Assembly (NCBI RefSeq): GCF_054482595.1
Contig: NZ_CM137008.1
Length of the DNA stretch: 64,000 nucleotides
Strand: one strand, 5' to 3'
Shown: positions 29,370-50,705 of the stretch, piece after piece
How positions within the stretch are numbered: position 1 is the stretch's first letter
How the letters are laid out: the number at the start of each line of letters is the position of its first letter
Made by a program: the position numbers and the translations under genes
The notes under the pieces: generated by a model
The model's input: the letters and a program-made list of their open reading frames with translations, nothing else
What the model was told of the DNA's origin: nothing
Databases searched by the model: none

Positions 29370-29518
29370 GGTCTCGCGTAGGTAGATTATTCTGCTAATA
29401 GTATGCCACGGATCTTTTTCCCTTGAGGGATGTTATTAGACCGCTATACTGGGCAGACAACAGTTCAGATTTTCGGGTCATTACCCGACCTCCGTTTTTT
29501 ACAGGCAAAATCACACAC

Positions 29519-30214
29519 ATGCGACTTGATAAATTTATCGCACAGCAACTCGGTGTTAGCCGTGCTATTGCCGGGCGTGAAATCCGCGGCAATCGTGTCA
29601 CCGTTGATGGCGAAATCGTCCGTAATGCAGCGTTCAAACTGCTTCCTGAACATGATGTCGCTTACGATGGCAACCCGCTGGCGCAGCAACACGGTCCACG
29701 TTACTTCATGCTCAATAAGCCTCAGGGCTATGTTTGCTCCACGGACGACCCTGATCACCCAACGGTGCTCTATTTTCTTGATGAACCAGTGGCGTGGAAA
29801 CTGCACGCCGCAGGGCGGCTGGATATCGATACCACCGGTCTGGTGCTGATGACTGATGATGGTCAGTGGTCGCACCGCATTACTTCTCCGCGCCATCATT
29901 GCGAGAAGACCTATCTGGTGACGCTGGAATCACCCGTAGCTGACGATACGGCAGAGCAATTTGCTAAAGGCGTGCAGCTGCATAACGAAAAAGATCTCAC
30001 TAAGCCGGCGGTGCTGGAAGTGATTACCCCAACGCAGGTTCGTCTGACCATCAGCGAAGGGCGTTATCATCAGGTGAAACGCATGTTCGCCGCTGTGGGT
30101 AACCATGTGGTTGAGCTGCATCGTGAACGTATTGGCGGCATTACGCTGGATGCTGATTTAGCCCCCGGTGAATATCGTCCGTTAACTGAAGAAGAAATTG
30201 CCAGCGTCGTCTAA
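29519..30214 (+). CDS. rsuA: 16S rRNA pseudouridine(516) synthase RsuA
   Basis: [27 protein letters not shown]... S4 domain then pseudouridine synthase; start chosen at internal ATG 29519. Confidence 0.9.
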
Positions 30215-30241: not shown

Positions 30242-31432
30242 GTGACCACCCGACAGCATTCGTCGTTTGCTATTGTTTTTATCCTTGGCCTGCTGGCCAT
30301 GTTGATGCCGCTGTCGATTGATATGTATCTGCCCGCGCTACCGGTAATTTCAGCGCAGTTTGGCGTACCGGCGGGCAGTACGCAGATGACCCTCAGTACT
30401 TATATTCTGGGCTTTGCGTTGGGGCAGTTAATCTACGGGCCGATGGCAGACAGCTTCGGGCGTAAGCCGGTGGTTCTTGGCGGTACGCTGGTGTTTGCCG
30501 CCGCCGCGGTGGCGTGTGCGTTGGCACAAACCATCGATCAGCTGATTGTGATGCGTTTCTTCCACGGGCTGGCGGCGGCTGCGGCCAGCGTGGTTATCAA
30601 CGCTTTGATGCGTGATATCTACCCGAAAGAAGAGTTCTCGCGGATGATGTCGTTTGTCATGCTGGTGACAACCATTGCACCGCTGATGGCACCGATAGTT
30701 GGCGGCTGGGTGCTGGTGTGGCTGAGCTGGCATTACATCTTCTGGATCCTCGCCGTGGCGGCGATTCTGGCTTCGGCAATGATCTTCTTTCTGATCAAAG
30801 AAACCTTACCACCGGAGCGTCGCCAGCCTTTTCACATTCGTACCACTATTGGTAACTTTGCGGCGCTGTTCCGTCATAAGCGTGTCCTGAGTTATATGCT
30901 GGCCAGTGGTTTCAGCTTTGCCGGGATGTTCTCGTTCTTAAGCGCCGGACCGTTTGTCTACATTGAAATTAACCACGTCGCGCCGGAAAACTTTGGTTAT
31001 TACTTTGCACTAAACATTGTTTTCCTGTTCGTGATGACCATTTTTAACAGCCGCTTCGTCCGCCGCATTGGCGCGTTAAATATGTTCCGCTCGGGGTTGT
31101 GGATACAATTTATTATGGCAGCGTGGATGGTCATCAGTGCGCTGCTGGGGCTGGGATTTTGGTCGCTGGTGGTTGGCGTTGCGGCGTTTGTGGGCTGCGT
31201 GTCGATGGTGTCATCCAATGCGATGGCGGTCATTCTTGATGAGTTTCCCCATATGGCGGGAACGGCATCTTCGCTGGCAGGAACCTTCCGTTTTGGCATA
31301 GGGGCAATTGTTGGCGCATTGCTTTCTCTTGCGACCTTTAACTCTGCATGGCCGATGATTTGGTCAATTGCATTCTGCGCAACCAGCTCCATTCTCTTCT
31401 GTCTGTACGCCAGTCGGCCGAAAAAACGGTGA
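30242..31432 (+). CDS. bcr: Bicyclomycin/multidrug efflux MFS transporter Bcr
   Basis: 396 aa, GTG start, [21 protein letters not shown]..., 12-TM MFS. Confidence 0.9.
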
Positions 31433-31446
31433 TCTATTGCACAACG

Positions 31447-31471
31447 AGGAAGCTAAAAGGCTTCCTTTGTT
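31447..31471 (+). terminator. bcr terminator
   Basis: aggaagc taaaag gcttcct ttgtt. Confidence 0.5.
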
Positions 31472-31764
31472 GATGCATGTCAACCACAAATCTATCATTC
31501 CCCCGATATATGTTTATTTTATGTAAAATCAATTTATGTAAAAAGTCACATCATTGTAGTTAAAAAGGTTGAGTTAGATCGCAGAAACGGGTACATATAG
31601 CCCCGCAAACGTGACCACGCCCGCAGATATTACTTAAATCAGAGCCATAGAGGCCACGCAGGCGAGGCATCAATCTTTACGATCTGTATAAAGACGGATT
31701 GTTGATGATGTGTTAAAATTGATGTAAACAAATTGTGAAGTAAATGTACTTCCGGGGAAAATAA

Positions 31765-32109
31765 GTGACTTCATTACAACTCTCAATCGTCCATCGACTG
31801 CCGCAGAACTATCGCTGGTCTGCTGGTTTCGCAGGTTCGAAGGTTGAACCGATTCCGCAAAATGGACCGTGCGGTGACAACAGCCTGGTGGCGCTTAAAT
31901 TGCTTAGCCCGGATGGTGATAATGCATGGTCGGTGATGTACAAACTAAGCCAGGCGTTAAGCGACATCGAAGTTCCATGTTCGGTGCTGGAGTGTGAAGG
32001 TGAGCCGTGCCTGTTTGTAAATCGCCAGGACGAGTTTGCTGCAACATGCCGATTGAAAAATTTTGGTGTGGCAATTGCCGAACCCTTTTCAAACTACAAT
32101 CCTTTTTAA
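31765..32109 (+). CDS. yejG: Uncharacterized protein YejG
   Basis: 114 aa, GTG start, [18 protein letters not shown]... Confidence 0.85.
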
Positions 32110-32112
32110 GCG

Positions 32113-33702
32113 TCAGCTCAACGCCAGTAGCCGACGCGTATACTCCTGCTGCGGTGTGGCAAACACGCGCGCGCACGGTCCTTGTTCCACTACTTCCCCT
32201 TGTCGCAGTACGATAACCTGATGACATAACGCGCGGACAACGTGCAAATCATGGCTGATAAACAAATAGGCCAGTTGATGCTTTTGTTGCAATGATTTCA
32301 GTAACGTCAATATTTGCGCCTGTACCGTTTTGTCGAGTGATGATGTCGGTTCATCAAGTATGATCAGCGAGGGCTTAAGAATTAATGCCCTGGCAATCGC
32401 AATACGTTGTCGCTGACCACCAGAGAACTCCGCCGGATAACGGTGGCGTGTTTCAGGATCTAATCCCACTTCATGCATCACGGCTATCACTTGTTGTTCG
32501 CGTTGTGCGGCAGAAAGCGTCGGCTGGTGAACCCGTAAGCCTTCCTCAATAATCTGCAAAACGTTGAGTCGTGGGTTGAGCGAGGAGTTTGGATCCTGAA
32601 ATACCACCTGAATGCGATGACGAATAGGTAACAGCTGGCGGCGATTTAAATTTTGCAGTGGCTGACCGTCAAAGATGATGCTGCCCTGAGAATTAATCAG
32701 TCGCAGCAGCGCCAGTCCCGTCGTGCTTTTCCCGGAACCGGACTCGCCCACTAAACCCAGTGTTTCACCCGCCCGTAGCGTAAAACTGATGTTTTTCACC
32801 ACCACATTATGATCCACAATGCGCTTCAAAATCCCTTTGCGAATGGGGAAGGCAACCTGAAGCTGTTCAACATCCAGCAACGTTGGGGCAGGTTCTGGCA
32901 ACGGCACTGGATCGCCTGACGGTTCACTGTTGAGTAGCTTTTGTGTGTAAGGATGAGTGGGTGAGGCAAATAGCGTAGCGGCGTAATTTTGCTCGACACA
33001 GCGACCGTTTTGCATTACCGCCACGCGGTGGGCCAGTTTTCTGACAATGCTGAGGTTATGAGTAATAAACAGCATGCCCATATTCAACTCGCCTTGCAGT
33101 TCGCGCAACAGCTGTAAAATCTGCGCCTGGACAGAGACGTCCAGTGCGGTGGTCGGTTCATCGGCAATTAATAATTCCGGTCGCGTTAACAGCGCCATCG
33201 CAATCATCACCCGCTGGCGTTCGCCGCCGGAGAGCTGATGCGGATAATCTGTCAGCCGTTTTGCCGCCTGGCGGATACCAACGCGATCAAGGCAGTTAAG
33301 AATTTCGCCACGAGCCGCTTCCCGACGCATCCCGCGGTGGAGTGAAAGCACTTCATAAAGCTGTTTTTCCAGGGTATGCAATGGATTTAACGACACCATC
33401 GGCTCTTGAAAAATCATGGCGATCTTATTACCACGTACGCCGCGCAACGTTTGATCGCTGGCATGAAGCAGCGATTCGCCATGAAAACGAATATCGCCGG
33501 AGAGATATTCAACCGGCGGGGAAGGGAGCAGGCGTAAAATTGACAGCGCGGTAACGCTTTTGCCTGAACCAGACTCACCCACCAGCGCCAGCGTTTCGCC
33601 AGCCTCAATCTGTAGTGAAACATCATTTACTACTGTACGTACGGTTTGCTGATGGCGAAAACCCACCGACAAATTTTCAATCGCTAACAGAGTTTGCGTC
33701 AT
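32113..33702 (-). CDS. yejF: Microcin C/oligopeptide ABC transporter ATP-binding protein YejF (two ABC domains)
   Basis: MTQTLLAIENLSVGF..., two Walker A motifs GESGSGKS; start at internal ATG rather than ORF-track 33750. Confidence 0.9.
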   Translation of the reverse strand: MTQTLLAIENLSVGFRHQQTVRTVVNDVSLQIEAGETLALVGESGSGKSVTALSILRLLPSPPVEYLSGDIRFHGESLLHASDQTLRGVRGNKIAMIFQEPMVSLNPLHTLEKQLYEVLSLHRGMRREAARGEILNCLDRVGIRQAAKRLTDYPHQLSGGERQRVMIAMALLTRPELLIADEPTTALDVSVQAQILQLLRELQGELNMGMLFITHNLSIVRKLAHRVAVMQNGRCVEQNYAATLFASPTHPYTQKLLNSEPSGDPVPLPEPAPTLLDVEQLQVAFPIRKGILKRIVDHNVVVKNISFTLRAGETLGLVGESGSGKSTTGLALLRLINSQGSIIFDGQPLQNLNRRQLLPIRHRIQVVFQDPNSSLNPRLNVLQIIEEGLRVHQPTLSAAQREQQVIAVMHEVGLDPETRHRYPAEFSGGQRQRIAIARALILKPSLIILDEPTSSLDKTVQAQILTLLKSLQQKHQLAYLFISHDLHVVRALCHQVIVLRQGEVVEQGPCARVFATPQQEYTRRLLALS

Positions 33703-33703
33703 G

Positions 33704-34729
33704 CTACACCGCCTTATTAGGATCAAATGCGTCGCGGACGGCTTCACCAATAAAGATCAGCAAAGACAACAATATCGCCACCGACAAGAAGGCGGTGATC
33801 CCAAGCCAAGGGGCCTGAAGGTTATTTTTCCCTTGTAACAGCAGTTCGCCGAGTGACGGTGAACCGAGCGGCAGACCGAAGCCGAGGAAATCGAGCGAGG
33901 TCAGGGTGGTTATCGAACTACATAAAATAAACGGTAAAAAGGTGAGGGTCGCGACCATGGCATTAGGCAACATATGACGCAGGATGATACTGCGATCGCT
34001 GACGCCAAGCGCCTGTGCCGCACGAATGTAGTCGAAATTACGAGTACGTAAAAACTCCGCCCGCACCACGCCGACCAGACTCATCCAGCCAAACAAGACA
34101 GTAATTGCCAGCAGCCACCAGAAGTCAGGCTGTACGACGCTGGAAAGTAAAATAATCAAAAACAGCGTCGGCATCCCCGACCATACTTCAATAAAGCGTT
34201 GCCCCCAGAGATCGACTTTACCGCCGTAATAGCCTTGTAGCGCCCCCGCCAGCACGCCCATCACGCTGGAACAGAGAGTCAGCATCAGGCCAAACAGAAC
34301 CGAGATCCGCGTGCCATAGAGAATACGTGCCAGCACATCGCCGCCGTTGGCATCCGTTCCCAGCCAGTTTTGCCGGGAGGGTGGAGAAGGGAAGGGCTTA
34401 TCGGTAGCAAAGTTGATACTGGTAGCACCAAAGCGAATCGGTGCCCACAGTACCCAGCCATTATTTTCCAGCCGTTGTTTCAGCCACGGGTCCTGATAAT
34501 CAGCCTGACTTGCCAGCGGGCCGCCAAAATCGCTTTCGCTGTAGTTTTTCAACAACGGGAAATACCAACTGCCGTCATAACGCACCAGCAACGGTTTATC
34601 GTTGGCGATAAGTTCAGAACACAAACTCAAACCAAACAAAACGAGGAAAATCCATAACGACCAGTAGCCGCGACGGTTATGGCGAAAACGCGCCCAACGG
34701 GCCTGATTGACGGGGCTGAGTCGCGACAT
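33704..34729 (-). CDS. yejE: ABC transporter permease YejE
   Basis: 341 aa, operon position. Confidence 0.9.
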   Translation of the reverse strand: MSRLSPVNQARWARFRHNRRGYWSLWIFLVLFGLSLCSELIANDKPLLVRYDGSWYFPLLKNYSESDFGGPLASQADYQDPWLKQRLENNGWVLWAPIRFGATSINFATDKPFPSPPSRQNWLGTDANGGDVLARILYGTRISVLFGLMLTLCSSVMGVLAGALQGYYGGKVDLWGQRFIEVWSGMPTLFLIILLSSVVQPDFWWLLAITVLFGWMSLVGVVRAEFLRTRNFDYIRAAQALGVSDRSIILRHMLPNAMVATLTFLPFILCSSITTLTSLDFLGFGLPLGSPSLGELLLQGKNNLQAPWLGITAFLSVAILLSLLIFIGEAVRDAFDPNKAV

Positions 34730-50466: not shown

Positions 50467-50705
50467 GTGTTCATGTTCTGTGCATCCCGTCACAAATTCC
50501 TCGCTTTTGTAATTCAGGCATTTAATCGCATTTTGTGAGCCTGCTCAAATCTGCCCGCTTTGCCTCTCTGGCGGCAATTTACTTTACGTAAAACATGCAT
50601 ACTATGAGCACATGTTTAAATATGAACACATGTTTAAACCGTCTTTGCAGTATCTATATCCTTGTGGATTGACAGGGTTGGTAATTTTTTACCAGAGGAC
50701 GTGCT

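Follow-up and report, generated by a model that had tools for sequence, protein, structure and literature searches.

An exact 11-bp direct repeat upstream of yejG probably consists of transcription-factor recognition elements, one of which belongs to a published ArcA-P site

The two identical 11-mers TTTATGTAAAA in the spacer between bcr and yejG of Escherichia coli are best explained as transcription-factor recognition elements upstream of the sigma-70 promoter yejG P2, with copy 1 serving as an ArcA element, a reading to which we assign a probability of roughly 0.75. The two copies probably do not form one functional unit, and it is likely that they are neither RNA nor translation signals. 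The ArcA site that includes copy 1 is already known, having been printed in the 2013 supplement of Park et al. (PLoS Genet 9:e1003839, PMC3798270), and what is still undescribed is only the duplicate that is out of phase and how exceptionally well the block as a whole is conserved.

The DNA analyzed here, hereafter the window, is a stretch of 64,000 nucleotides of the E. coli assembly GCF_054482595.1 (contig NZ_CM137008.1). Its gene order around the repeat is rsuA (29423-30214), bcr (30242-31432), yejG (31765-32109), and yejF (32113-33750, minus strand); bcr and yejG both lie on the plus strand with a spacer of 332 bp between them, and the repeat region is identical to that of MG1655. The original prediction described two identical 11-mers in this spacer, 15 bp apart and each with an ATG directly before a TAA, and the description is borne out by the sequence (Table 1). 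The figure of 15 bp is true as the start-to-start distance, the linker between the copies being 4 bp (TCAA), and ATGTAA is present in both copies, at 31521-26 in copy 1 and at 31536-41 in copy 2. Since the bases flanking the two copies are unlike, the length of the repeat is exactly 11 bp.

Table 1. Coordinates in the window of the repeat copies and of the features discussed with them
Feature	Position	Strand	Location and basis
Copy 1, TTTATGTAAAA	31518-31528	+	-87..-77 of yejG P2; sequence
Copy 2, TTTATGTAAAA	31533-31543	+	-72..-62 of yejG P2; sequence
ArcA-P site yejG2, ATGTTTATTTTATGTAAAATCAATTTATGTA	31510-31540	+	-95..-65 of P2; Park et al. 2013, Tables S1, S2, and S4
ArcA-P site yejG1	31699-31742	+	Over yejG P1; Park et al. 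2013, Tables S1, S3, S4, and S6
yejG P2 core promoter	31569-31605	+	Primer-extension start site and conservation
Candidate weak CRP site, TATGTAAAAAGTCACA	31535-31550		Center 31542.5, or -62.5 of P2; predicted by matrix
bcr 3′ terminator-like hairpin	31438-31477	+	Between bcr and the repeats; RNA fold
17-codon ORF, MFILCKINLCKKSHHCS	31510-31563	+	Contains both repeats in frame

The pair is not remarkable as a matter of sequence statistics. We counted exact 11-mer pairs within 30 bp of each other in simulated 64-kb sequences generated by first- and third-order Markov models. The simulations gave 0.7 to 0.85 such pairs per 64 kb, with at least one pair in 38 to 52% of the simulated windows, while the real window has three loci with close exact 11-mer pairs. 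The chance of finding such a pair in the 332-bp bcr-yejG spacer alone is about 0.004, a value that loses its significance after correction for the number of spacers. By sequence statistics alone the TTTATGTAAAA pair is within chance for a 64-kb window, and because it is nonsignificant on this basis, the reality of the feature rests on its conservation. The other close exact repeats in the window are GTTAACCAGTT at 10310 and 10337, 27 bp apart, and CACATGTTTAAA (12 bp) at 50609 and 50627, 18 bp apart; near the latter pair, at 50583-93, is TTTACGTAAAA, which differs from TTTATGTAAAA by one mismatch.

Two sigma-70 start sites of yejG have been mapped by primer extension, P1 at 2,276,299 and P2 at 2,276,419 in U00096.2 coordinates (the dPeak paper, PMC3798280). 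The coordinate map was anchored on the ArcA site ATGTTTATTTTATGTAAAATCAATTTATGTA, which Park et al. print as 2276484-2276514 on the minus strand. As this string occupies positions 31510-31540 of the window, the offset between U00096.2 and U00096.3 is fixed at +1978, and a window position equals 2,310,002 - (v2 coordinate + 1978). Converted in this way, the start sites fall at ~31605 (P2) and ~31725 (P1), and both are preceded by sensible promoter elements. P2 has the -35 element TTGAGT (31569-74), a conserved 17-bp spacer containing GATC, and the -10 element TACATA(TA) (31592-99). P1 has an extended -10 element, TGTTAAAAT, at 31711-19, which in most genera reads TGTTAATAT instead. Both copies of TTTATGTAAAA are located upstream of both mapped start sites, in DNA that is untranscribed as far as it has been mapped. 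Moreover, the terminator-like hairpin downstream of bcr, with a core of GGAAGC-TAAAAG-GCTTCC followed by TTTGTT, folds at -21.6 kcal/mol (z = -5.5), and none of 200 shuffled sequences folds as well. A promoter/terminator scanner missed both P1 and P2 and returned only TTGATG-17-TATCAT at 31470-98, the hexamers printed for yejG by Shimada 2014. Given that conservation of the -10 hexamer TATCAT stops at Escherichia, Citrobacter, and Salmonella, we did not take 31470-98 to be the main yejG promoter.

The original prediction held that a lack of conservation of the repeats among close relatives would refute it. One genome per species with YejG was used, which gave 80 loci across the Enterobacteriaceae and 79 distinct upstream sequences for comparison, and conservation among these is clear. 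Copy 1 is exact in 66 of the 79 upstream regions, and none of the 79 departs from its TGTAAA. Copy 2 is exact in 32, with TTTGTGTAAAA as the commonest variant, and its position 31536 is A in 44 sequences and G in 33. Unlike A31536, the corresponding base of copy 1 (A31521, just before TGT) is invariant. The 26-bp span and its 15-bp register are kept in 75 of the 79 regions, and the string TGTTT-N6-TGTAAA is almost invariant across the whole set. That the two copies are under different constraint, with A31521 fixed and A31536 alternating with G, argues that their 11-bp identity in E. coli would not itself be the selected feature.

The conservation extends well beyond the repeats. A block of ~90 bp (31511-31601) has a mean identity of 91% to E. 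coli, compared to 52% directly upstream and 43% in the P2 5′ leader, and it stops a few bases short of the P2 start site. Copy 1 and the -10 element of P2 are separated by 70 bp in E. coli and by 69 to 71 bp in other genera. By these comparisons, the block carries the signature of promoter-upstream regulatory DNA, and the ArcA box alone does not account for its conservation. The block also includes the whole spacer between the -35 and -10 elements of P2, with its conserved GATC at 31577-80, as well as TTGTAGTTAAAAAGG at -51..-37, and published sigma-32 SELEX and ChIP signals (2,276,452 and 2,276,466) map into it. Comparison within E. coli was uninformative, as 5,180 of 5,424 genomes share the same sequence from 31500 to 31560; the strains that diverge most do so at 31475, 31508, 31514, and 31530, with both copies intact. 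In the Klebsiella oxytoca group (five loci), copy 2 is lost, as in ATCGTTCAAAA. In the same group, within the sequence aligned to 31533-31560, TCACA-TCAT-TGTAG has changed to a perfect inverted repeat, TCGCA-N4-TGCGA. These paired changes in the two arms suggest that whatever binds at -60..-45 may have undergone a lineage-specific rewiring.

The evidence that copy 1 is an ArcA element comes mainly from Park et al. (PMC3798270), who list two ArcA-P sites at yejG, designated yejG2 and yejG1. The ChIP-seq peak of yejG2 is at 2,276,488 (window position 31536), with 1.9-fold enrichment, and was found by ChIP-seq only, not by ChIP-chip. Its ArcA box scores 17.6 bits, and its repeat elements at 2276511, 2276500, and 2276490 (window positions 31513, 31524, and 31534) score 8, 8.5, and 1.4 bits, respectively. 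In the window, DR1 of yejG2 is TGTTT at 31511-15, DR2 is TGTAA at 31522-26, and DR3 is weak, which makes the ATGTAAA of copy 1 (31521-27) DR2 of the published site, with the TGTTT of DR1 11 bp upstream. As in the ArcA-P operators of that study, copy 1 and the upstream TGTTT, tabulated there as yejG2, are two TGTTA-type direct repeats 11 bp apart from center to center, which is the pattern by which an ArcA box is recognized, and they are accompanied by a ChIP-seq peak and by ArcA-dependent repression of yejG.

Scoring of the window gave a similar picture. We built an ArcA-box matrix from 114 published boxes (training median, 16.0 bits), from which yejG1 was left out. The 18-mer at 31510-27, ATGTTTATTTTATGTAAA, scored 18.1 bits and ranked fourth of 127,966 window positions. 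The top four matches were yeiQ (a training site), 31722 (19.1 bits), 31699 (18.9 bits), and 31510 itself, the two nontraining matches above it being the P1 boxes in the same spacer. Under a single-DR matrix, ATGTAAA scores 8.8 bits as a single element in both copies, within the top 0.03% of window 7-mers. The second published site, yejG1, has 8-fold ChIP enrichment, spans -26..+18 of P1, and comprises four repeat elements of 8.6, 9.7, 9.8, and 5.3 bits (PMC3798270). These elements are TTGTTGA, GTGTTAA, ATGTAAA, and TTGTGAA, spaced by 11, 12, and 11 bp, and both their sequence and their spacing are conserved across genera. The third ATGTAAA of the spacer, at 31722-28, is DR3 of this site.

Several observations weigh against a simple account of copy 1 as an ArcA operator. 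The ChIP signal at yejG2 is weak and is confined to ChIP-seq, and Table S6 of Park et al. names the P1 site alone as responsible for repressing yejG. The published expression data reflect P1 and P2, and likewise yejG2 and the P1 site, together. The invariance of A31521 is not explained by ArcA, as this position of the box varies among the 114 boxes. Most ArcA repression sites overlap the core promoter, and yejG2 differs from them in being located upstream of it. We also considered phased looping between the two ArcA sites, which in E. coli are 189 bp, or 18 helical turns, apart; this was rejected, as the distance in 77 relatives ranges from 138 to 200 bp and shows no phase preference (R = 0.12 to 0.17, P = 0.6 to 0.8).

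Expression data place yejG among genes repressed by ArcA. In an arcA mutant, yejG is derepressed 11.9-fold, and it was classed as directly repressed (Park et al. 2013, Tables S5 and S6, PMC3798270); in a Salmonella arcA mutant, it is up 2.9-fold. The sigma-70 ChIP signal at yejG is 1461 under aerobic and 56 under anaerobic conditions (Myers 2013, Table S2), and expression has been reported to differ 4-fold between aerobic and anaerobic growth, a difference whose direction we have assumed. Other reported responses of yejG are an acid-specific induction in E. coli and an induction by H2O2 in Salmonella. One expression study puts yejG under Cra repression, and published work also locates an operator predicted for GalR, GCGGAATCGGTTCAAC, and a site of Cra detected by ChIP-exo inside the gene, at about 31843-31858 of the window.

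The preferred reading of copy 1 as an ArcA element joins published results to a proposed role for the upstream site. The literature shows that, when respiration is restricted, phosphorylated ArcA binds weakly at yejG2 and strongly at the four-repeat site over P1 (31699-31742). Occupancy of the yejG promoters by sigma-70 polymerase then collapses, and yejG undergoes ~12-fold ArcA-dependent repression. At yejG2, ArcA-P would act on P2 from -95..-65, in addition to the stronger site downstream, which would occlude P1 directly. Because yejG2 keeps a conserved distance from the -10 element of P2 but is clear of the core promoter, it most likely hinders a factor that works from upstream, at about -60 to -90, which might be an activator or the alpha-CTD/UP contacts of the polymerase.

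The role of copy 2 is less clear, and we hold any specific role for it with low confidence. Park et al. do not mention the exact 11-bp direct repeat within yejG2; the third element that they score is 10 bp from DR2 (1.4 bits), whereas the TGTAAA of copy 2, a better match, lies outside the spacings that they considered. Distances of 15 bp to DR2 and 26 bp to DR1 put the TGT of copy 2 out of the helical phase (10 to 11 bp or about 22 bp) at which extra ArcA elements are placed. With a spacing from DR2 that is neither 11 nor 22 bp, copy 2 is not a canonical in-phase ArcA partner. The 7-mers 11 bp to either side of it (AAAATCA and CACATCA) fell below the 4-bit cutoff of our spacer listing, and at putP a third repeat was unprotected even at a 12-bp spacing (Park et al., PMC3798270). 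We think that copy 2 is an ArcA element of orphan or auxiliary type, or else the left half of a class-I CRP site, itself weak, that would be occluded when ArcA binds. The auxiliary ArcA role is a tentative suggestion, and we give it a weight similar to that of the CRP reading.

The CRP reading holds that copy 2 and the conserved GTCACA that follows it form a composite ArcA/CRP element, in which a class-I CRP activator site for P2, centered at -62.5, is antagonized by ArcA bound next to it. The likeness of copy 2 to copy 1 would then be incidental, since both motifs begin with (A/T)TGT. We regard this as possible but doubtful. A CRP matrix built from 56 RegulonDB sites (training median, 10.4 bits; 10th percentile, 7.2 bits) gives the candidate site 8.3 bits, which is within the range of real sites and ranks 30th of 63,985. 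The candidate 16-mer matches the core at 8 of 10 positions, including the key G4 and C13, although 8/10 core matches occur 26 times in the window. Its center is 1 bp off the canonical -61.5, within mapping error, and a TATGA left half is also present in the known CRP sites of aldA, murQP, and glpF. The G at 31536 found in 33 of the 79 relatives strengthens the match, and TGTGTAAAAAGTCACA, the form with this G in other genera (TGTGT-N6-TCACA), scores 11.1 bits by the same matrix. The TCACA half is conserved, but it can also be read as a minus-strand ArcA-like element (ATGTGAC, 6.2 bits). A CRP site placed on copy 1 was rejected at -9.5 bits.

In published genomic SELEX, whether read out from clones or on a chip, CRP selected the bcr-yejG spacer. 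However, this signal is better explained by GGTGATCTATTGCACA at 31428-43, which was the authors' own pick: the CRP boxes that Shimada 2011 predicted for the bcr-yejG SELEX peak are at 31428-43 and 31568-83 and not at 31535-50. GGTGATCTATTGCACA overlaps the bcr stop codon, is the rank 6 match of our CRP matrix at 12.2 bits, and is not conserved across genera. Park et al. offer precedents for activator sites that lie within ArcA sites, for example that for CRP at paaA (PMC3798270). Similar to class-I CRP sites in or beside ArcA sites such as that at paaA, the candidate is a CRP-like 16-mer near -62 that shares bases with an ArcA site at the latter's 3′ end, in a spacer that is a CRP genomic-SELEX target. 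It differs from them in that the E. coli match is weak and remains a candidate and in that a stronger CRP box is found elsewhere in the spacer. CRP-dependent expression of yejG was not found in the literature, and the Cra assignment mentioned above comes from one study.

Alternatively, the exact duplication may itself be functional, an idea that we consider improbable. A full-strength ArcA-type element that is half a helical turn out of phase and is also a CRP half-site could make a switch, in which cAMP-CRP would compete with ArcA-P, or one ArcA dimer with another on the opposite face of the helix, for overlapping DNA at the fixed distance of 70 bp (69 to 71 bp) from the -10 element of P2. 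If true, this would be an architecture outside the 10/11/22-bp rules of ArcA, and it would help to explain the near-invariant 90-bp block across the Enterobacteriaceae.

Regulators of the OmpR/PhoB family other than ArcA might use the same tandem element, TGTTTA-N5-TGTAAA, in place of ArcA or besides it, and among these PhoP is the most plausible. Such binding would link yejG to acid or Mg2+ signals. The tandem hexamers at 31511-27, with their 11-bp period, match the PhoP box (T/G)GTTTA-N5-(T/G)GTTTA at 10 of 12 positions, and another 10/12 match is found at 31700-16; the second hexamer is TGTAAA at yejG and TGTTTA in the PhoP box, so that the site is a candidate by sequence match, and 10/12 matches occur 26 times on both strands of the window. 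In a Shigella phoPQ mutant, yejG was derepressed 2.7-fold by array and 3.9-fold by quantitative reverse transcription-PCR, and the acid-specific induction of yejG in E. coli points in the same direction. However, the 38 PhoP-box candidates of the Shigella study exclude yejG, and binding was not tested there. The effect of PhoP could be indirect, whereas the evidence for ArcA is direct (ChIP and mutant), and we judge a role for PhoP at the repeat to be decidedly unlikely.

Other regulators were considered and rejected as binders of the repeat. For CpxR (GTAAA-N5-GTAAA), no match of at least 9/10 was found in the spacer, where the GTAAA pairs are spaced by 10 to 11 nt and not by 5. By inspection, TyrR, OmpR, Fis, IHF, and LysR-type regulators (T-N11-A), as well as Fur, Zur, KdgR, and EvgA, have the wrong spacing or a poor second half-site. 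FNR was rejected as well, given that the FNR-like site lies outside the repeat and is reportedly unoccupied. That site, TTGATGCATGTCAA at 31470-31483, is one mismatch from the FNR consensus TTGAT-N4-ATCAA and is centered at -128.5 of P2. Most other genera have a perfect palindrome here, with an N4 that varies freely, as would be expected of a genuine protein site. In Myers 2013, TTGATGCATGTCAA is listed among the predicted FNR sites with 14.14 bits and is located beneath a ChIP-seq peak of Fis, and yejG is absent from the FNR ChIP-peak tables and from the fnr-dependent expression tables of that study.

The original prediction had offered two readings of the repeats, as regulator binding sites or as minimal start-stop elements. 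The first agrees with the published ArcA-P site and with the conservation described above, while the second did not hold up on position, terminator, Shine-Dalgarno sequence, or conservation. As start-stop mini-ORFs, the two ATGTAA would capture ribosomes on a long yejG leader or on RNA that reads through from bcr and would thereby tune downstream expression. It is true that ATG stands directly before TAA in both copies and that the ATGTAA of copy 1 is kept in 77 of the 79 relatives; at copy 2, 43 relatives have ATGTAA, 24 have GTGTAA, and 3 have a gapped GTGT-A. A transcript from the sigma-70-like TTGATG-17-TATCAT would begin near 31505, upstream of the repeats, but the -10 hexamer of that promoter is confined to the three genera named above, both mapped start sites are downstream of the repeats, and the strong hairpin separates the repeats from bcr. 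Within 20 nt upstream of the two ATGs, AGGAGG is matched at no more than 2 of 6 positions. Conservation also follows a DNA motif: it spreads evenly to the TTTT, AAAA, and TGTTT that a start-stop does not need, while 33 of the 79 relatives have G in place of the A of the second ATG and the copy is lost in some Klebsiella, with TGTAAA kept.

A comparison with known start-stop sites leads to the same view. The E. coli start-stops shown by Meydan et al. 2019 using Ribo-RET (yecJ and hslR; their Figure 5A) likewise have an ATG followed immediately by a stop codon, as in ATGTAA. The known E. coli start-stops, however, are all located within transcribed genes, and the two illustrated have SD-like sequences and initiating-ribosome peaks, whereas the repeats are without a mapped transcript and without an SD sequence. 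The main text of Meydan et al. 2019 does not mention yejG. Since the repeats are upstream of both start sites, lack an SD sequence, and have the bcr terminator upstream of them, the start-stop reading is unsupported, and we regard it as very improbable.

Least probable of all is that the repeats encode part of a small protein, for which speak the 15-bp period, a multiple of three, that places both copies in frame in a 17-codon ORF, each encoding Leu-Cys-Lys, and the intact 17-codon frame in 42 of the 79 relatives (exact peptide in 23), and against which speak a start codon that is ATG in 42 and TTG in 37, stops after 7 to 11 codons in many relatives (lengths, 1 to 43 codons), no third-position excess (variability of 0.127, 0.088, and 0.098 at codon positions 1, 2, and 3), and the lack of a Shine-Dalgarno sequence and of a mapped transcript over the ORF. 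The comparison of start codons, frames, and codon positions ruled out 31510-31563 as coding. An Rfam scan of 30800-32400 (E ≤ 1) returned no known RNA family and only a meaningless match to a eukaryotic lncRNA.

These results provide a clean negative, in that an eye-catching ATG-TAA pair is ordinary operator DNA and should not be kept as a translational candidate. Some interest remains in yejG, a conserved gene of unknown function whose regulatory DNA is conserved and crowded to an unusual degree, with two ArcA sites, CRP-like boxes, and a palindrome of FNR-consensus type that is apparently unoccupied. Although the advance would be incremental and would concern well-known regulator families, identifying the proteins that bind copy 2 and the other parts of the block could help to show under which conditions yejG is required.
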